Assembly (NCBI GenBank): GCA_036380735.1
Contig: DASVEE010000057.1
Location: 11,646-75,645 of the forward strand
Reading direction: 5' to 3'
Length of the DNA: 64,000 bases
DNA from: Thermoanaerobaculia bacterium
Lineage (GTDB): Bacteria; Acidobacteriota; Thermoanaerobaculia; Gp7-AA8
Both the position numbers and the translations under genes were made by a program. The notes beneath the pieces are model-generated. The model was not told where the DNA came from. It worked only from the letters and a program-made list of their open reading frames with translations, and made no database searches. Shown one piece after another: positions 11,440-61,296 of the stretch; positions within the stretch are counted from its first letter, which is position 1; the number at the start of each line of letters is the position of its first letter.

Positions 11440-11520
11440 ACGAACGGAACCTGCGAGCAAGGCTGTCGCCTGCTTACCTCAGTTCTATACGTCCCATCCG
11501 TCCCATTCGTCCTATGGCGT
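11440..11520. repeat. ATAGGAC-unit hairpin element (copy 3, degenerate left arm)
   Basis: GGGGACGAACGGAAC ... CTATACGTCCCATCCGTCCCATTCGTCCTATGG. Confidence 0.6.
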
Positions 11521-14136: not shown

Positions 14137-14187
14137 CTATCCCATCCGTCCCATTCGTCCTATAGGTCCTATTCGTCCCATCGTTCC
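14137..14187. repeat. ATAGGAC-unit element, single arm (copy 5)
   Basis: CTATCCCATCCGTCCCATTCGTCCTATAGGTCCTATTCGTCCCATCG. Confidence 0.6.
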
Positions 14188-18774: not shown

Positions 18775-18820
18775 GATAGGACGAATGGGACCGATAGGAC
18801 GAATAGGACCTATGGGACCG
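18775..18820. repeat. ATAGGAC-unit element, single arm (copy 6)
   Basis: GATAGGACGAATGGGACCGATAGGACGAATAGGACCTATGGGACC. Confidence 0.6.
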
Positions 18821-20948: not shown

Positions 20949-21062
20949 GGGTTGGGGCCGGGGGACGATAGGACAAATAGGACGAATAGGACCGATGGGA
21001 CGAATAGGACGCAGACCGATGCCATAGGTCCCATGGGTCCTATCCGTCCTATCGTCCGCCCG
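20949..21062. repeat. ATAGGAC-unit hairpin element (copy 7)
   Basis: GGGACGATAGGACAAATAGGACGAATAGGACCGATGGGACGAATAGGAC ... GTCCCATGGGTCCTATCCGTCCTATCGTCC. Confidence 0.85.
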
Positions 21063-31235: not shown

Positions 31236-31925
31236 ACCGGTTTAGATCCGCCCACCGCGGTTCGAGCTCCGAAATGGCGGTTCGGGGTCCGGGCCCGGTA
31301 GTCGACGTCCGAAAGACGGCGGTTCAGGGTCCGAGCATGGCGGTTCCAAGTCCGAGTACCGCGGTCTGACGTTCGCGCGCGGCAGTTTGATGTCCGCGCC
31401 CGGCGGTCTGAGGTCCGCGCACCGCGGTCTGAGGTCCGAGCACGGCGGTTTGACGTCCGAGCACCGTGGTTTGAGGTCCGCGTACGGCAGTTTGAGGTCC
31501 GCGCACGGCGGTTTGACGTCCGAGCACGGTGGTTTGACGTCCAAGCGCGGCGGCTTGACGTCCGAGCACGGCGGTTTGAGGTCCGAACACGGTGGTCAGA
31601 GCGCGCCCTTTGGGTAATCAGACCACCGTCATCGGACTCGAAACCGCCGTGATCGGACTCGAAGCCGCCGTCATCGGACTCGAAACCGCCATGATCGGAC
31701 TCGAAACCACCGTCATCGGACTCGAAACCACCGTCATCGGACTCGAAACCACCGTCATCGGACTCGAAACCGCCGTGACCGGACTCGAAGCCGCCGTGAC
31801 CGGACTCGAAACCGCCGTGACCGGACTCGAAACCGCCGTGATCGGACTCGAAGCCGCCGTGCTCACACTTGTAAGCGGCGTGACCACGCTCGAATCGGCC
31901 GCGATCGCGTCGCCTGTGACCGAAG
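31236..31925. repeat. palindromic double tandem array 3: about 17 x 21-bp units (GGTCCGAGCACGGCGGTTTGA) then about 14 inverted units (ACTCGAAACCGCCGTGATCGG), centre near 31610
   Basis: direct reading; left half top strand equals reverse complement of right-half unit consensus. Confidence 0.95.
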
Positions 31926-31989
31926 TCATTTTATTTGCGCATTTCGTTCAGATGACCTACCTTGCTGTCACGTCCCCCGTCCCGGAGAT

Positions 31990-34332
31990 TTGATGCGCAA
32001 CGTTCGGAACATCTTCTTTGCCTGCAGCCTCGTCTGTGTGGCGGTAGCCGCGTCCGCGGATGCCGTCGGTGATGGCGTCGTCGACGCGGTTCGCCGCGGG
32101 GATCGTGCCGCGGCCGTCGCGGCTTCGCGTGCGGCGGACGATCCGGCGCCCATCGTCGAGGGGTTGCTTGCCGTCATCGAGGACAAGCAGGCTTCGACCG
32201 AGATCCGCCGCGATGCCGCTCAGGTGTTGAGCCAGATCCCCGTCGACGCCAGCGTGCGTCTGCTCCCGACGTTCGAAACGGCTTCCGACGACCTGCGCCT
32301 CGAGTTGATCGACGCGATGGGCGCCCATCGGGCGCTGCTCGCGCTCGCGAGCGACAGCAAGGCACGTTGCTCCCTTCGCACCGCCGCCGTCACGCGCTAC
32401 TGGAGCGCCGGCGGGAACCGCGCGCCGGTGCACGCGCTCTTCTCCAGCGAAACCACGCCGCCCTGCGTCGTCGTGGCCATCGCGCCGCTCCTGCAGCAGG
32501 ATCTCGATCGTGCCGACCTTCCGACGGTCGCCGCCACAGCGTCGCGCCTGGTGCTGGAGGGGCAGTCGCGCAACGAGCTGCTCGACCTGCTCGCGTCGAC
32601 CGCCGCGCGCCTCCCGCAAAAGGACGCGACGCGACTCGATCACGCGATGCTCGACGTGGTCGCCCGTCCGGCGGCGACGCACCGCCGCATTGCCGCGCTC
32701 CTCTACTTGCAGAAACGCGGCGTCAACGCGCCGCCCGATCCGGGGATGCTCCTGCGCATCGCCACGGATGACACCGCGCCCGAAGCGCTCCGCGACGCCG
32801 CTCTTGGCGCCGTCGGTTCGCTCGGCCGCCTCGACGCGCAGGCGACCGGCCGTTTGACGAACTTCGCCTCACGTCCGCAGCTCACGCCGCGGCTGCGCCG
32901 CGCGGCATTCGAGGCGCTCGCCGCCGTCGGTGCCGCTCCCGATCGTCCTGTGGCCACAGCCGCCGCCCCGGCGCTCGCCTCGGCGATGACCACCGCGCCG
33001 GCGAGCGCCGACGGCCTGGCGTTCACGCTGCCGCGCATCTCGCCGATGGCGGCCGTCGTGCTCCTCGGCGCGCTCGCGTTGCTCGCCTTCTTCATCGCAC
33101 AACCCATCGTGCTCGATCGCTGGGTGCGCAAGCATCTCAGCGTCGCGCGCGAGCGCTTCGCGGCGAAGGAAACAGTGAAGGTGCGCTCCGCGTACGTGCC
33201 GATGCCGCTCGAGCTCAATGACCGCCGCATCGAAGCCGACGACGTCGACGACGCCATGCGCGCGCTCTTCCGCCGCAGGTGCGTGCTCCTCATCAGCGGC
33301 GAAGGTGGCTCCGGCAAGACGTCGATCGCGGTGAAGCTCGCGAACGACGCGCTCGCCGCGAAGAAGCCGATGCTGCCGGTGCTCATCGAGCACGACTTCG
33401 ACGGCACGCTCCTCGACGAGGTCCGCGAACAACTGCACGACCTCCTCGGCATCAACGTCGCGCCGCAGCTCGCGCGCAAGCTGCTCCGCCAGGGACGCGT
33501 GCTGCTCATCATCGACCACTACTCCGAACTGCAGGAAACGTCGCGCCGGAAGATCGACACGAAGCAGGCGCGCGCCGTCATCATCACCTCGCGCAACGAC
33601 GAGCAGTTCCTCGGGCGCACCGTCATCAATCCGACGCGCATCCGCTGGAGCGATCTGACCAGCTTCATGGAGCACTACCTCCGCCTGCGCGACAAGCTGG
33701 AGCTGTTCAGCGACCGCGAGTTCCACGAGGCCTGCCGCAACTTCGCCGAGATGACGCACGGCCGCGACTCGACGATTCTCCTCGCCCGGCTTTTCGCCGA
33801 TCTGATGATCTCCGCGAAAGAGAAGAAGATGGAAATTCTGCCGCGCAGCGTGCCGGAGCTGATGGTGCGCTACGTCCGTTTCATGAACGTCTCGCGGCAG
33901 CCGGGCGATCCGAACAACGACGAGATCCAGCGCGCTGCCAGGCTCGTGGCATGGGAGTGCGTGAAGCAGGAGCTGGCGCCTGCACGCGCCCGCCTCGACG
34001 ACATCCGCCGCGCGGTCGGCGACGACGCCGACGAACTGCTCGAGTACCTCGAGCGCGACCTGGCGCTCATCGAGATCTGCGAGCCGGCACGCGCCGAAGT
34101 CCGCTTCACGCTGGATCCGCTGGCGGAGTACCTGGCTGCGCTGCACATCACGGAGCTCCACGGCGACGACGTGGCCAAGTGGGAGTCGTGGGTCGAACTG
34201 CTGCCCGACAACGGCCAGCGCATGCGCGGCTTCCTCCGCGCGGTCCTCGACTGCATCGGCACCGGCGACGAGCTGGAGCTCGCGCGAGAGGCGATCCGGA
34301 TCCGCATGACGGTGTTTGCGGCGGCGGCGTAG
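31990..34332 (+). CDS. membrane-anchored NACHT (STAND) NTPase with periplasmic HEAT-repeat domain
   Basis: signal peptide MMRNVRNIFFACSLVCVAVAASADA; HEAT/PBS-lyase-like repeats aa 30-330; TM helix MAAVVLLGALALLAFFIAQPIVL; Walker A GEGGSGKTS, Walker B VLLIIDHYSE, NACHT sensor motif AVIITSR; helical C-terminus. Confidence 0.75.
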   Translation: MMRNVRNIFFACSLVCVAVAASADAVGDGVVDAVRRGDRAAAVAASRAADDPAPIVEGLLAVIEDKQASTEIRRDAAQVLSQIPVDASVRLLPTFETASDDLRLELIDAMGAHRALLALASDSKARCSLRTAAVTRYWSAGGNRAPVHALFSSETTPPCVVVAIAPLLQQDLDRADLPTVAATASRLVLEGQSRNELLDLLASTAARLPQKDATRLDHAMLDVVARPAATHRRIAALLYLQKRGVNAPPDPGMLLRIATDDTAPEALRDAALGAVGSLGRLDAQATGRLTNFASRPQLTPRLRRAAFEALAAVGAAPDRPVATAAAPALASAMTTAPASADGLAFTLPRISPMAAVVLLGALALLAFFIAQPIVLDRWVRKHLSVARERFAAKETVKVRSAYVPMPLELNDRRIEADDVDDAMRALFRRRCVLLISGEGGSGKTSIAVKLANDALAAKKPMLPVLIEHDFDGTLLDEVREQLHDLLGINVAPQLARKLLRQGRVLLIIDHYSELQETSRRKIDTKQARAVIITSRNDEQFLGRTVINPTRIRWSDLTSFMEHYLRLRDKLELFSDREFHEACRNFAEMTHGRDSTILLARLFADLMISAKEKKMEILPRSVPELMVRYVRFMNVSRQPGDPNNDEIQRAARLVAWECVKQELAPARARLDDIRRAVGDDADELLEYLERDLALIEICEPARAEVRFTLDPLAEYLAALHITELHGDDVAKWESWVELLPDNGQRMRGFLRAVLDCIGTGDELELAREAIRIRMTVFAAAA

Positions 34333-34334
34333 CG

Positions 34335-34505
34335 GGTCGATAGGACGAATAGGACCCATGGGACGAATAGGACCTATGGGACAAACAAGCCTGCGCGGTC
34401 TGGCGCATCCGCGTGACGCTGGTGCCGCGGCGTAAGCCAGACAGGATCACGTCGAAGTCGCGCAGCGTCCTATCCGTCCCATGGGTTCTATTCGTCCTAT
34501 CGGTT
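34335..34505. repeat. ATAGGAC-unit hairpin element with about 80-nt loop (copy 8)
   Basis: GATAGGACGAATAGGACCCATGGGACGAATAGGACCTATGGGAC ... GTCCTATCCGTCCCATGGGTTCTATTCGTCCTATCGG. Confidence 0.85.
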
Positions 34506-34595
34506 CTGCCGCGCCCGCCGGGCGGAAGCGTAGCCGGCGCCCCCTCGCACCTTCCTGCCGTTACGGGGCGGCACGCGGTAAAATGGCGGCGCCTC

Positions 34596-37500
34596 ATGTC
34601 CTTCGTTCATCTCCATCTCCATACTGAATACTCCCTCCTCGACGGCGCCTCGCGACCGGAAGAGCTCGCGAAGCGTGTCGCCAAGCAGGGCATGCCTGCC
34701 TGCGCCATCACCGACCACGGCAACATGTTCGGCGCGGTCGAGTTCTACAACGCCATGAAGAAGGAGGGGGTCAAGCCGATCATCGGCTGCGAGATGTACG
34801 TCGCGTATGGCTCCCGCTTCGACAAGGCTGGCGTCGAAGACGGTCAGGCGGACGCGGGCGCGAACAACCACCTCATCGTGCTGGCGCAGAACGACACCGG
34901 CTACAAGAACCTGGTCAAGCTCGTCTCGGCGGGCTATACCGAGGGCTTCTACTACAAGCCGCGCATCGACAAGGAGCTGCTGCGCGAGCACCGCGAAGGG
35001 CTGATCGTCCTCTCCTCGTGCCTCAAGGGCGAAGTCTCGCAGAGCCTCGCCGGCGGCAACTGGCAGAAAGCCAAAGACGCCGCGCTGACGTACCGCGAGA
35101 TCCTCGGGCCGGAGAACTTCTTCCTCGAGATCCAGGATCACGGCATCCCCGATCAGCAGAAGATCGTGCCGATGATGGCGAAGCTCGCCGACGAAGTCGG
35201 GCTGCGCATGGTCGCCACGAACGATTCGCACTACCTCGACAAGTCCGACGCTTTCGCGCACGAGGTCCTGCTCTGCATCGGCACCGGCAAGACCCTCAAC
35301 GACGAGAAGCGGATGAAGTTCTACTCCGACGACTTCTACGTGAAGGGGCCGGACGAGATGCGCCGCGTCTTCGCCGACTACCCCGAGGCCGTGGACAACA
35401 CGGTGCGGATCGCGGAGCGCGTGAACCTCTCGCTCGACGTCAAAGGGCACCACCTGCCGAAGTTTCCGGTGCCCGAGGGATCGACGCTCGCCGATCACTT
35501 CGCGAGAGTTGCGCGCGCGGGTCTCGACAAGCGCATGAGCGCCATGGCGCATCTCTTCGCCGCGAAGCGCAAGAAGCACGAGCCGAAGGAATACTACGAC
35601 CGGCTCGAGCGCGAGATCGAGATCATCAAGAACATGCAGTTCCCCGGCTACTTCCTCGTGGTCTGGGACTTCATCAAGTACGCGCGCGACCACGGCATCC
35701 CCGTCGGCCCGGGCCGCGGTTCCGCCGCCGGCTCGCTCGTCGCATATTCGCTCGGCATCACCGACGTCGATCCGCTCGAGTACGACCTTCTCTTCGAGCG
35801 CTTCCTCAACCCCGAGCGCATCTCGATGCCCGACATCGACCTCGACTTCTGCATGAACCGTCGCGGTGAAGTCATCGAGTACGTACGCGACAAGTACGGC
35901 AAGGAGAACGTCGCCCAGATCATTACGTTCGGAACGATGGCCGCGAAGTCGGTCGTCCGCGACGTCGGCCGCGTGCTCGGGCATCAGTACGGCTTCGTCG
36001 ACAAGATCTCGAAGATGATCCCCGGCGGTCCGGGCGTCACGCTGACCGACGCGAAGAAGGACTCGCCGCAGCTCGCCGAGGCGATCAAGAACGACGCCGA
36101 GGTGAAGAAGATCATCGAGATCGGCGAGAAGCTCGAAGGGCTGTCGCGCCACGCCGGCATGCACGCGGCGGGCGTCGTCATCACGCCGGAGCCCGTGACG
36201 AATTACGTGCCGCTATACCGCACGAACCGCGATGAAATCGTGACGCAGTTCGACATGCGCGTCGTCGAGAAGATGGGCCTCGTCAAGATGGACTTCCTCG
36301 GCCTGCGCACGCTGACGGTCATCGACGACGCGATCAAGTCGGCGAAGAGCGTCGACGGCATCGACATCGACATCGACCGCATCCCGCTCGACGATCCGGA
36401 TGTCTTCCGCCTCTTCCAGGAAGGGCGGACCAAGGGCGTGTTCCAGTTCGAATCCGGTGGCATGGTCGACCTCCTCCGGAAAGCGCGCCCGACGCAGTTC
36501 GAAGACCTCGCCGCACTCAACGCGCTTTATCGCCCGGGCGCGCTCGACGCCGGCATGGTCGACGAGTACGTGAAGCGCAAGAACGGCACGTCGAAGGCGA
36601 AGTACCTCGTGCCGGTGATGAAAGACGTGCTCGAGGAGACGTACGGCGTCATCGTCTACCAGGAGCAGGTCATGCAGATCGCGCAGAAGGTCGCGGCCTA
36701 CTCCCTCGGACAGGCCGACCTGCTGCGCAAGGCGATGGGCAAGAAGGACGCGGCGGTCATGGCGGCCGAGCGCGGCAAGTTCGTCGACGGCGCCGTCAAC
36801 AACGGCTACGAAAAGAAGAAGGCGAACGAGATCTTCGACTACATCGAGCCGTTCGCGCGCTACGGCTTCAACAAGTCGCACTCCGTGGCGTACGCGCTGG
36901 TCGCTTACCAGACGGCGTGGCTGAAAGTGCATCACCCGCGTCACTTCATGGCGGCACTGATGTCGTCGGAAATGGACCGCACCGACGCAGTCGTCAAGTT
37001 CATCGGCGAAGCGAAGCAGATGGGCATCGAAGTGATGCCGCCCGACATCAACGAATCGAACTTCCTCTTCACTGTCGTGGGCCAGAACATCCGCTTCGGC
37101 CTCGGCGCCGTGAAAGGGGTGGGCGAGGGGGCGATCGAATCGATCCTCGCGGCGCGGCAGAAGCTCGGCCGCTTCAAGACGCTCCTCGCCTTCTGCGAAG
37201 AGGTCGACCTTCGCGCGTGTAACAAGAAGGTGCTCGAAGCGCTGATCAAGTCCGGCTCGTTCGACTTCCTCGGCACGTCGCGACGCGCGCTGTACGAGCA
37301 ACTCGAAGCGACGGCCGATTCGGCGCAGCGGGCGAAGGACGAAAAAGAGAAGGGGCAGAACTCGCTCTTCGGCATGCTGGGAGGCGGCGGCTCGATCCAG
37401 TCGAGCAGCACGCCGGCCGCGATCGCGAAGATGCCGGAGTGGCCGGAAGACGAGCGCCTTCGCTACGAGAAGGAAACGCTCGGCTTCTACATCACCGGGC

Positions 37501-38441
37501 ATCCGCTGAACAAATACGGCGACGAGCTGGGGCTCTTCGCCAATGCCACGACGGAGACGCTCTACAAGCACGTCGACGAAGTCGTGAACATCGGCGGCAT
37601 CGTTTCGCAGATCAAGAAGTCGAAGATCAAGAAGGGGCCGAACGAGGGGAAGATGATGGCCAAGTTCTTCCTCGACGATCAGTACGGCTCGGTCGAGGTG
37701 GTCTGCTTCTCCGATCTCTACTCCAAGTATCAGCGGTGGCTGGAGAACGGCGTGGCCATTCTGGTGACCGCGAACGTGAAGGACACGGGCGGCGTGCAGG
37801 CGGGCCGCTCGGCCTCGCTGCAGAGTGCCGAACAGAACGCGCACCAGATCGACGACGAGTACGGCGGCCATCCGGAGACGGCGCGCGCGCGGGTCTCGGC
37901 GTACCAGATCTCGTACTACGAGATCGGCGAAGAGGACGATCGCGATCCGAAGGACATCGAGCGCGAGCGTGTGGGGGCGGACGTCGACCAGTACATCGTC
38001 GGCGGGGGACTGTTCGGCGGCGCGGCTCCGTCGGAGGTCGACGAATTCAACGCCCTGGTCAGCGAGTTGACGCCCGAGGTGACGACCAACTTCGCTGCGC
38101 ACGCCGCGGCGTTCCACGAGTCGCCGATCACGCCGGAGCTGTCCGCGCTCGACATCACGCCGCTCGACGGGATTCGCGACAAGAAGGTGAAGGAGATCTC
38201 ACTCGAGGTCGCCTATCCGGCGATGAGCGAGGACACGGTGCGTAAGATCCGCGAGATCGTCGAAGAGAACCTCGGCGAGATCCCGCTGACGGTGACGCTG
38301 ATCGACCTGCCGGCGTCGCTCGCCGCGAGCGCCGGACCGCAGCTCAAACTGCGCGTGAACCATCACTTCAAGGTGCAGCCGGGACCGGGGTTGACCCACG
38401 CCTTCGAGCAGGTGCACGCGAATCCGCGGTACGTGTTCTAA
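34596..38441 (+). CDS. dnaE: DNA polymerase III alpha subunit
   Basis: PHP domain MSFVHLHLHTEYSLLDGA; polymerase core and OB-fold regions collinear with DnaE; ATG 34596 within track ORF 34413..38441. Confidence 0.95.
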   Translation: MSFVHLHLHTEYSLLDGASRPEELAKRVAKQGMPACAITDHGNMFGAVEFYNAMKKEGVKPIIGCEMYVAYGSRFDKAGVEDGQADAGANNHLIVLAQNDTGYKNLVKLVSAGYTEGFYYKPRIDKELLREHREGLIVLSSCLKGEVSQSLAGGNWQKAKDAALTYREILGPENFFLEIQDHGIPDQQKIVPMMAKLADEVGLRMVATNDSHYLDKSDAFAHEVLLCIGTGKTLNDEKRMKFYSDDFYVKGPDEMRRVFADYPEAVDNTVRIAERVNLSLDVKGHHLPKFPVPEGSTLADHFARVARAGLDKRMSAMAHLFAAKRKKHEPKEYYDRLEREIEIIKNMQFPGYFLVVWDFIKYARDHGIPVGPGRGSAAGSLVAYSLGITDVDPLEYDLLFERFLNPERISMPDIDLDFCMNRRGEVIEYVRDKYGKENVAQIITFGTMAAKSVVRDVGRVLGHQYGFVDKISKMIPGGPGVTLTDAKKDSPQLAEAIKNDAEVKKIIEIGEKLEGLSRHAGMHAAGVVITPEPVTNYVPLYRTNRDEIVTQFDMRVVEKMGLVKMDFLGLRTLTVIDDAIKSAKSVDGIDIDIDRIPLDDPDVFRLFQEGRTKGVFQFESGGMVDLLRKARPTQFEDLAALNALYRPGALDAGMVDEYVKRKNGTSKAKYLVPVMKDVLEETYGVIVYQEQVMQIAQKVAAYSLGQADLLRKAMGKKDAAVMAAERGKFVDGAVNNGYEKKKANEIFDYIEPFARYGFNKSHSVAYALVAYQTAWLKVHHPRHFMAALMSSEMDRTDAVVKFIGEAKQMGIEVMPPDINESNFLFTVVGQNIRFGLGAVKGVGEGAIESILAARQKLGRFKTLLAFCEEVDLRACNKKVLEALIKSGSFDFLGTSRRALYEQLEATADSAQRAKDEKEKGQNSLFGMLGGGGSIQSSSTPAAIAKMPEWPEDERLRYEKETLGFYITGHPLNKYGDELGLFANATTETLYKHVDEVVNIGGIVSQIKKSKIKKGPNEGKMMAKFFLDDQYGSVEVVCFSDLYSKYQRWLENGVAILVTANVKDTGGVQAGRSASLQSAEQNAHQIDDEYGGHPETARARVSAYQISYYEIGEEDDRDPKDIERERVGADVDQYIVGGGLFGGAAPSEVDEFNALVSELTPEVTTNFAAHAAAFHESPITPELSALDITPLDGIRDKKVKEISLEVAYPAMSEDTVRKIREIVEENLGEIPLTVTLIDLPASLAASAGPQLKLRVNHHFKVQPGPGLTHAFEQVHANPRYVF

Positions 38442-46084: not shown

Positions 46085-46262
46085 ACCTGTAGGCAATGGC
46101 CGAATCGCGTGAGGCCGCGATGGGACCGATGGGACAAATAGGACGAGTAGGACGGATGGGACAGATAGGACGGATGAGGCGGACAGAACAGATGGAAAGC
46201 GGCACTCATCGGGCGGGATCCCATTGGTCCCATAGGTCCCATTCGTCCCATCGTCCCCGCCG
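46085..46262. repeat. ATAGGAC-unit hairpin element (copy 10)
   Basis: GATGGGACCGATGGGACAAATAGGACGAGTAGGACGGATGGGACAGATAGGAC ... GTCCCATAGGTCCCATTCGTCCCATCGTCC. Confidence 0.85.
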
Positions 46263-51527: not shown

Positions 51528-51645
51528 GGCGAAGAACGATAGGACGAATAGGACCTATGGGACGGATAGGACCTATGCGACCGCGATCCGTCCCGTCCGT
51601 CCTATCTGTCCTATAGGTCCTATAGGTCCTTTCGGTCCCATCGTT
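51527..51645. repeat. ATAGGAC-unit hairpin element (copy 11)
   Basis: GATAGGACGAATAGGACCTATGGGACGGATAGGACCTATG ... GTCCTATCTGTCCTATAGGTCCTATAGGTCC. Confidence 0.85.
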
Positions 51646-61179: not shown

Positions 61180-61296
61180 TAGGACAGATAGGACCCCATG
61201 GGCCGCCCAACCCCGACGGTGGCTAGTGAAGGGGTGGGCGGGGTCCCATTCGTCCTATAGGTCCCATAGGTCCCATTCGTCCTATCGTCTCCCTGT
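61164..61296. repeat. ATAGGAC-unit hairpin element (copy 13)
   Basis: GGACGATAGGACCAATAGGACAGATAGGACCCCATGGG ... GTCCCATTCGTCCTATAGGTCCCATAGGTCCCATTCGTCCTATCGTC. Confidence 0.85.

Follow-up and report, generated by a model that had tools for sequence, protein, structure and literature searches.

Among the closest described counterparts of the gene analysed here are the bacterial NACHT proteins (bNACHTs). A survey of these proteins defined the NCH-type C-terminal helical domains and, in the available text of the preprint, describes a class with transmembrane (TM) regions as possibly sensing membrane or periplasmic signals (Kibby et al., bioRxiv 10.1101/2022.07.19.500537). In the available part of its table, HEAT repeats stand only C-terminal to NACHT, the C-terminal domains are NCH1-3 and not NCH4, and an N-terminal HEAT domain combined with a TM region is absent (bioRxiv 10.1101/2022.07.19.500537). 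We analysed a 64,000-nucleotide stretch of a Thermoanaerobaculia bacterium genome (assembly GCA_036380735.1, contig DASVEE010000057.1, positions 11,646 to 75,645 of the forward strand), called the window here and numbered from its first letter. The open reading frame (ORF) 31990..34332 (+) had been described in an original prediction as encoding a signalling or defence switch with an extracytoplasmic HEAT-repeat domain, one TM helix and a NACHT/STAND NTPase. Our analysis indicates that the product is probably a type I single-pass membrane protein that belongs to the NACHT clade of STAND NTPases; it is a divergent representative of a large family and would act as a TM-gated switch. It shares with the bNACHTs its place in the NACHT clade; those bNACHTs that have been characterised differ from the window protein in being cytoplasmic and in carrying their effector at the N-terminus and their sensor at the C-terminus.

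Other described systems resemble the window protein in part. Mammalian NLRC4 and NOD2 (PDB 4kxf and 5irl) share with it the order nucleotide-binding domain (NBD), helical domain 1 (HD1), winged-helix domain (WHD) and helical domain 2 (HD2), together with the Walker A, Walker B and sensor-1 logic, at a sequence identity of 12-14%; they are soluble proteins whose C-terminal leucine-rich repeats (LRRs) fold back on NACHT, whereas the window protein has an N-terminal putative sensor across the membrane. Avs/AVAST proteins belong to the same STAND superfamily and have the same single-gene sensor-switch logic, but the window protein has no TPR sensor, no nuclease or protease effector and no significant match to them. 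Toll-like receptors and plant LRR receptor kinases consist of a signal peptide, an extracellular solenoid, one TM helix and an oligomerising intracellular module. The likeness of the window protein to these type I receptors is an analogy only, with a non-homologous outer domain and with NACHT inside in place of TIR or kinase. The KAP family, membrane-associated P-loop NTPases related to STAND/AAA+, which Aravind et al. are said to have described in 2004, reportedly carries TM helices inserted within the NTPase domain; KAP Pfam models had no match in the window protein, whose sole TM helix (aa 352-374) lies before the NTPase domain. Bivalve proteins with the order extracellular domain, TM, DED and TRADD-N have been described, some of them with a C-terminal STAND NTPase (PMC8195603), and another preprint refers briefly to 'transmembrane STAND ATPases' that serve Pepco systems as sensors (bioRxiv 10.1101/2025.11.14.688446). 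Our literature search found no paper on the signal peptide-HEAT-TM-NACHT architecture, family or topology.

We confirmed the ORF 31990..34332 (+) in the window. Long chance ORFs arise readily in high-GC DNA, and we therefore tested the coding status of the gene, which is overlapped by a 496-aa antisense ORF. The gene is real and its frame is coding, as follows from its GC content by codon position (0.73/0.47/0.89 at positions 1/2/3), from a syntenic ortholog and from the codon differences between the two genes (211/133/330 at positions 1/2/3). The ortholog (P0002, locus L001) is 63% identical, comes from a second Thermoanaerobaculia metagenome-assembled genome (MAG) and occupies the same position between an M1 peptidase gene and dnaE. 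Identity between the pair is 63% in the outer domain, 67% in the NACHT region and highest, at 82%, in the C-terminal tail. The ORF as listed starts at TTG 31990; ATG 31993, with GGAG 5 nt upstream, appears the likelier start. We numbered the protein from this ATG because of the upstream GGAG and because a 100% identical deposited protein (P0001, 'hypothetical protein VF618_21960', from a Thermoanaerobaculia MAG) has 779 aa. The predicted ORF therefore stands, while the predicted length of 780 aa becomes 779 aa plus stop. Conserved blocks lie upstream of both orthologs (window 31925-31992 and L001 9835-9904), reading TTTTATTTGCGC ... GATGACCTA ... CACGTCCC ... CCGGAG, which suggests a shared promoter or 5' leader; their location within the chance ORF 31592..31993 is evidence against a coding role for that ORF. 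The parts of the gene and its product are as follows.

31993..34332 (+): whole gene, 779 aa plus stop; identity to P0001, GGAG, codon-position divergence.
31993..32064 (+): predicted Sec signal peptide, aa 1-24, MRNVRNIFFACSLVCVAVAASADA, cleavage after A-D-A; hydropathy peak at aa 4-26.
32065..32928 (+): predicted extracytoplasmic all-alpha solenoid, aa 25-312, ~9 helical hairpins; AlphaFold2 (AF2) model.
32929..33042 (+): Ala/Pro-rich linker, aa 313-350, predicted disordered; predicted local distance difference test score (pLDDT) < 50 at aa 313-349.
33046..33114 (+): predicted single TM helix, aa 352-374, MAAVVLLGALALLAFFIAQPIVL; Kyte-Doolittle 2.54, AF2 helix at aa 351-368.
33115..33207 (+): juxtamembrane segment, aa 375-405, motif LD(A/R)W...AR..F....TV..R; alignments.
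33208..34158 (+): predicted NACHT module (NBD-HD1-WHD-HD2), aa 406-722; pLDDT > 90, Foldseek.
33298..33324 (+): Walker A GEGGSGKTS, aa 436-444; G, E, G, G, K and T invariant in the family.
33499..33528 (+): Walker B VLLIIDHYSE, aa 503-512; D508, S511 and E512 invariant.
33574..33600 (+): sensor-1 hhhTSR motif AVIITSRND, aa 528-536; T532, S533 and R534 invariant or nearly so.
34102..34143 (+): winged-helix motif RFTLDPLAEYLAAL, aa 704-717; DPLAEY at nt 34114, with D, P, E, Y and A invariant.
34159..34329 (+): C-terminal helical tail, aa 723-779, including GFLRAVLDC; 82% identity to the ortholog.

A word-indexed search with the whole protein returned only the window protein itself and one ortholog. 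The orphan status suggested by that search was overturned by an exhaustive HMMER scan of 1.84 billion representatives with a profile made from the window protein and its ortholog, which yielded 1,627 clusters (at 50% identity) at E <= 1e-3, 1,253 at <= 1e-10 and 701 at <= 1e-30. Except for P0002, the best 150 matches were all best over ~400-420 residues running from just after the hydrophobic helix to the C-terminus (profile positions ~372-773). Typical members reached E values down to 1e-95, with 35-43% identity over a ~420-aa module of TM helix, juxtamembrane segment, NACHT and tail. We scanned 49 sampled members with Pfam and found HEAT_2 in 47 (E down to 5e-179), NCH4 ('NACHT C-terminal helical domain 4') in 43, NACHT in 42 (E <= 0.001) and nSTAND3 in 14; the NACHT cutoff was passed in P0003, P0157, P0178 and P0007 and missed in some other members scanned singly. 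The window protein had been thought to fit no described family, a view that these numbers and the match of the family's parts to Pfam HEAT_2, NACHT and NCH4 do not sustain. Examples of the HEAT_2-TM-NACHT-NCH4 family are a protein of Kovacikia minuta CCNUW1, A6770_36805 of Nostoc minutum NIES-26 and proteins of Okeania, and the window protein has in common with them a homologous module, the same domain order and a stand-alone gene. Database names of members include 'HEAT repeat domain-containing protein', 'NACHT domain-containing protein' and 'PBS lyase', and neither NCBIfam nor PADLOC has a model for the family. The window protein is thus a divergent member of a large, experimentally unstudied family that is annotated piecemeal in the databases.

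A juxtamembrane motif, (R)P...LDAW(V)...AR..F....TV..R, is near-invariant in the family, with D35, W37, F49, V55 and R58 of alignment A3 as invariant columns. The constant core of the family is a predicted signal peptide, a variable outer domain, a TM helix, the juxtamembrane motif, NACHT and NCH4; the predicted succession of signal peptide, repeats, TM helix and NTPase is widely kept among family members. The outer domain ranges from ~50 to ~1,400 aa, with stubs of 50-100 aa at the low end, and is usually a HEAT_2 array, the largest (~1,400 aa) giving 17 HEAT_2 matches. In a sizeable minority of members, HEAT or LRR repeats follow NCH4 and so stand on the cytoplasmic side; these members still have the signal peptide, a stub and the TM helix. 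Together with P0002 and P0003 the window protein forms a small clade within the family. Unlike the bulk of the family, this clade has an outer domain in which HEAT_2 is not recognisable by sequence; the window protein also lacks ~40 aa of the juxtamembrane segment that most relatives have, and its NCH4 is reduced to the leading GFLxAVxDC motif.

Single relatives depart further from the usual layout: P0113 has a PSII_BNR/Ycf48-like propeller (BNR) as its outer domain, in P0136 a trypsin-like domain takes the outer position and a SpoIIE/PP2C phosphatase forms the C-terminus, and P0074 has LRRs at its C-terminus. A scan of one genome per species gave 78 loci, mostly in filamentous cyanobacteria, with Nostoc, Calothrix, Chlorogloeopsis, Coleofasciculus, Trichodesmium and Microcoleus as cyanobacterial hosts. 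The other hosts are Planctomycetes (Gemmata, Pirellulaceae, Isosphaeraceae), a few Proteobacteria and, among the Acidobacteriota, Thermoanaerobaculia, Blastocatellia and Terriglobia. A 366-kb contig (L067, CAVVLY010000001.1) assigned to a Nitrososphaerota archaeon MAG carries a member with 41% identity to the query module, the result of either horizontal transfer or a binning error. We counted 97 family ORFs in 86 fetched loci; some loci have two adjacent family ORFs, which are either tandem paralogs or frameshift-split genes.

The N-terminus of the window protein, MRNVRN-IFFACSLVCVAVAA-SADA followed by V, has a positive n-region, an h-region of ~14 residues and an A-x-A site. We read this segment as a predicted signal peptide; its h-region is short for a membrane anchor. 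Signal-like N-termini are also present in both close homologs, P0003 (MQAVRRAVLSLCLWMAAGSAVA, cleaved before E) and P0002. The deposited form of the latter (762 aa) begins at an internal start codon; 32 codons further upstream there is an in-frame ATG (ATG 9905, L001 9905-10000) with GGAGG before it, which adds the segment MRIVRTVVIGCGIVCAAGAVWAAGE and restores a signal-peptide-like N-terminus. The signal peptides absent from database entries of the family may often have been lost to such start-calling errors. The only other strongly hydrophobic stretch of the window protein is aa 352-374 (Kyte-Doolittle 2.54); the preceding 15 aa contain one K/R and the following 15 aa contain five. On both the signal peptide and the single TM helix these heuristics agree with the original prediction. 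Nearly every relative has a hydrophobic helix of 19-23 residues ~85-130 aa, commonly ~128 aa, before Walker A, with Kyte-Doolittle values of 2.0-3.0 in almost all members, and 50 of 54 ORFs called anew from genomic DNA have the helix. Classical signal peptides of the ...SNSWA/Q type (slash at the cleavage site), for example MTKHTRQVLLSALKVVVLCLTLFLLCTSNSWA before Q, occur in 31 of the 45 genome ORFs with an N-region of >= 150 aa, and a signal peptide is also present in members with a C-terminal HEAT array. A hydrophobic helix and a signal-like N-terminus are thus conserved across the family, in what appears to be a bitopic design.

The NTPase was assigned to the NACHT clade of STAND from its predicted structure and its relatives. 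The AF2 model has pLDDT > 90 over aa 370-770 and contains the NBD-HD1-winged helix(-HD2) fold. In a Foldseek search against the PDB the best matches were NLRC4 (4kxf, E = 2e-6, ~450 aligned columns) and NOD2 (5irl), followed by CED-4, Apaf-1, ZAR1 and NLRPs interleaved with ORC/Cdc6; clamp-loader AAA+ proteins came last. The family profile against PDB sequences gave P-loop-only matches except for one extended stretch, in NLRC4 (E = 0.026). Among Pfam models, nSTAND3 reached 28.1 bits (cutoff 27.2) over the P-loop at aa 417-458 only, and after the NACHT model came a string of generic P-loop families. The Walker A, Walker B and TSR motifs of the original prediction are all present and, like DPLAEYLAA, fall on invariant or near-invariant family columns. 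The Walker B is of the NACHT type DGxDE, with Ser instead of Asp at the +3 position. The NACHT winged-helix motif FxHxSFQE[YF]LAA carries a His that contacts ADP. We take RFTLDPLAEYLAAL to be the counterpart of this FxHxSFQEYLAA motif, with Leu replacing His; it lies in a strand-strand-helix pattern at aa 693-723 of the AF2 model, keeps the E-Y-L-A-A part and has Leu at the His position, as does the rest of the family. The Foldseek order, the family-level Pfam matches, the TSR motif and the EYLAA motif place the modelled NTPase in the NACHT clade of STAND rather than with AAA+/ABC or KAP proteins, in agreement with the NACHT fold and winged helix that had been expected of a model.

No enzymatic effector domain was found in the window protein by Pfam scan. 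A helical tail of ~250 aa without an effector had been described; the effector is indeed absent, but there is no separate tail, as the region after the NBD consists of the HD1-WHD-HD2 part of the NACHT module and a short NCH4-like end. Its GFLRAVLDC corresponds to the start of the NCH4-type domain of relatives (GFLxAVxDC).

The outer domain (aa 25-312) was modelled by AF2 as ~9 helical hairpins, with pLDDT of ~90 over aa 30-210 and 55-69 over aa 210-310, and its fold matches were weak and only to ARM/HEAT/TOG solenoids. By sequence, Pfam HEAT models had no match in the window protein at E <= 1. A 31-residue HEAT profile built from 490 family repeats scored 4.1 bits on the outer domain against -1.9 +/- 4.1 for shuffles (z ~1.5), and hhalign of the outer domain with canonical outer domains gave 21% probability over 16 columns. 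Since all three sequence tests were non-significant, we did not call the domain HEAT; the only sequence hint consists of weak matches of an N-domain HMM (hidden Markov model) to the HEAT regions of relatives. A word-indexed search with the outer domain alone returned nothing, the query protein included, probably because its Ala-rich words saturated the list of candidates. The HEAT/PBS-lyase-like repeats of the original prediction are therefore supported by the predicted fold and the position in the family but not by the sequence comparisons, and the domain is better described as a probable alpha-solenoid in the HEAT position than as a demonstrated HEAT array. Two cysteines of the outer domain are conserved in all three clade members (P0001, P0002, P0003) and would suit a periplasmic disulfide.

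In the mechanism that we propose, the solenoid would lie in the periplasm and bind a periplasmic or envelope ligand there. With the sensor across the membrane, it could not fold back on NACHT as in NLRs, and control would therefore have to pass through the single TM helix. Activation would most likely consist of ligand-driven clustering or re-orientation of TM helices, a change that may permit ATP-dependent oligomerisation of NACHT on the inner face of the membrane. The oligomerised cytoplasmic platform would then carry the output, mainly by way of its conserved C-terminal tail. We place it there because the tail is the best conserved part, because relatives append HEAT, LRR or SpoIIE/PP2C domains after NCH4, and because part of the juxtamembrane segment is dispensable in the window clade. 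Taken to its full extent, the proposal describes a bacterial 'outside-in' NLR in which an envelope repeat sensor triggers NACHT oligomerisation across one TM helix; we advance this version tentatively, as an idea with a rather low probability, with phages adsorbing to the cell, neighbouring cells and wall fragments as candidate ligands.

Several observations weigh against a TM-gated NACHT protein. The topology calls are made from hydropathy and signal-peptide heuristics. By a crude test, 14 of the 45 long-N genome ORFs lack a signal-like start, and the family-wide K/R values at the TM helix (2.09 vs 2.10) show no net positive-inside bias. HEAT repeats on the periplasmic side are unusual. The window protein reached 22.3 bits with Pfam NACHT (PF05729) and missed the cutoff of 26.7, so that the Pfam comparison proposed with the original prediction stayed below the cutoff for NACHT and gave no match for HEAT in this protein; Pfam NCH4 (PF22731) had no match in it at E <= 1. 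The winged-helix His that contacts ADP in NLRs is Leu here, and we know of no characterised precedent for a single TM helix gating a NACHT domain.

The first of these points bear on a different topology, in which the N-terminal segment is no signal peptide, the internal helix is a peripheral or re-entrant anchor and both the solenoid and NACHT are cytoplasmic, making the protein a tethered NLR-like protein. HEAT repeats are typically cytoplasmic, the array stands C-terminal to NACHT in the sizeable minority of relatives noted above, a second hydrophobic stretch follows just after the first in some members, and many deposited proteins lack an N-terminal hydrophobic segment, all of which, with the missing family-wide charge bias, would fit such a topology. 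However, missing signal peptides can reflect mis-called starts, as in P0002, and the N-termini that are present have a textbook n/h/c layout with AxA or WAQ cleavage sites. The length and hydrophobicity of the internal helix are maintained in almost all members, the variants with C-terminal HEAT still keep a signal peptide and a short outer stub, the window clade has its two invariant outer-domain cysteines, and one relative (P0136) has a trypsin-like outer domain. We consider a wholly cytoplasmic arrangement improbable. Still less credible is the reading of the NTPase as an ATPase of generic P-loop or AAA+-like kind, or as a membrane NTPase of the KAP type, whose likeness to NACHT is limited to the P-loop. 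The weak Pfam matches of the window protein, among which many P-loop families score alike and NACHT stays under its cutoff, the confinement of the nSTAND3 match to aa 417-458 and the mostly P-loop-only matches to PDB sequences would be expected of such a protein. They are outweighed by the clear family-level NACHT and NCH4 matches, by the ~450 columns aligned to NLRC4/NOD2 (E ~2e-6) ahead of AAA+ proteins, by the invariant TSR sensor-1 and EYLAA motifs and by a TM helix that precedes the P-loop domain and is not inserted in it as in KAP NTPases, and we rate this explanation as very unlikely.

We also weighed the possibility that the protein is an abortive-infection or conflict NLR, in which NACHT oligomerisation, set off by the sensing of a ligand such as a phage at the envelope, bundles the TM and juxtamembrane helices into a depolarising pore. 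The ZAR1 resistosome channel is made of that protein's N-terminal helices, and ZAR1 was among the fold matches of the window module. The TM helix and juxtamembrane motif form the constant element directly before NACHT, the canonical effector position, and the gene has no enzymatic effector or partner gene. The family has a patchy distribution with a bias towards multicellular bacteria, one copy was found in an archaeal MAG, and the sensor size is highly variable. Bacterial NACHT proteins that were tested were often antiphage, according to the available text of the survey (bioRxiv 10.1101/2022.07.19.500537), and Avs architectures include TM effectors (PMC13581612). On the other side, the window protein gave nothing significant with PADLOC (best mad8, 18.9 bits, in the P-loop region) and 9.5 bits with NCBIfam Avs4 against a cutoff of 1500, and neither it nor its relatives matched a PADLOC Avs model. 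The deletion of ~40 aa from its juxtamembrane segment also speaks against a pore.

The surroundings of the gene point the same way. In the window the gene is surrounded by the M1 peptidase gene, dnaE and genes for a PKD-domain protein and a GAF-PAS-GGDEF-EAL protein; PADLOC had no match among ten ORFs within ~12 kb of the gene, and no defence genes were found there or in the other annotated loci examined. Seven annotated homolog loci had unrelated neighbours and no conserved partner or effector gene, and clustering of flanking ORFs over the 86 loci gave no gene family in more than 11 loci, the genome-derived examples of recurrent clusters being Nostoc-type loci (L019, L020). No neighbour recurs beyond Nostoc synteny, and the gene is therefore stand-alone. 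In two MAGs it occupies the syntenic place between the M1 peptidase gene and dnaE, and it is stable in 13 Nostocales genomes. Among the 13 Nostocales orthologs the mean identity is 0.91 in the outer domain and 0.93 in NACHT; as the outer domain is as conserved as NACHT, it is not hypervariable and there is no arms-race signature. Context and evolutionary rates thus give no support to a defence role, which had been offered alongside signalling, and we regard the pore, the main rival of the proposed mechanism, as a rather unlikely explanation.

Two sets of repeats flank the gene. Upstream, two inverted blocks of 21-bp tandem repeats (31329-31596 and 31622-31907, ~13 and ~11 copies) together form an imperfect palindrome of ~270 bp with arms 71-82% complementary. 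Locus L001 has a histidine-kinase gene where the window has these blocks, and the core of the repeat was absent from all 86 fetched loci, so the co-occurrence of this array with the gene in relatives, raised with the original prediction, was not seen. A second, REP-like element is dispersed through the genome. Its 9/18-bp unit, TRGGACGAAT, was counted 27 times in the window, where 3.4 occurrences would be expected, and many of the copies form inverted pairs close to each other. Near the gene it is found at 34341-34382 and 34468-34507, one pair forming a hairpin between the stop codon of the window gene and dnaE; other sites are 7073/7109, 11487-11514, 13363/13445, 14144-14180, 18777-18804, 20978-21005, 46130-46250, 51540-51567, 55530/55599 and 61248-61284. 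The unit also flanks the homologous gene in locus L002 (9836-9884 and 12498-12543) and occurs elsewhere in L002, and it is absent from L001. A functional link between the gene and its flanking repeats was rejected, with the downstream element genome-wide and the upstream array in none of the 86 loci. The dnaE ORF 34413-38441 is listed from GTG 34413, and its conserved PHP-domain start MSFVHLHLHTEYS lies at ATG 34597; translation probably does not include the first ~60 listed codons, a stretch that overlaps the REP-like hairpin.

What is new in this protein is the predicted type I transmembrane NLR-like layout; the parts of the family are Pfam entries, and the NACHT kind of switch was already known. 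Should the topology prediction fail, the protein would be one more membrane-tethered bNACHT. To our knowledge, all characterised STAND/NLR switches sense their ligand in the compartment of the ATPase and are held off by fold-back of the sensor. If the sensor of the window protein lies across the membrane, NACHT switches would be gateable by transmembrane signalling too. An 'outside-in' NLR, if true, would follow a TLR/NLR hybrid logic, uncharacterised so far, that dispenses with fold-back autoinhibition, and would represent a bacterial receptor class combining the layout of a Toll-like receptor with the engine of an NLR. It would also offer a tractable single-gene system for NACHT control without intramolecular autoinhibition.

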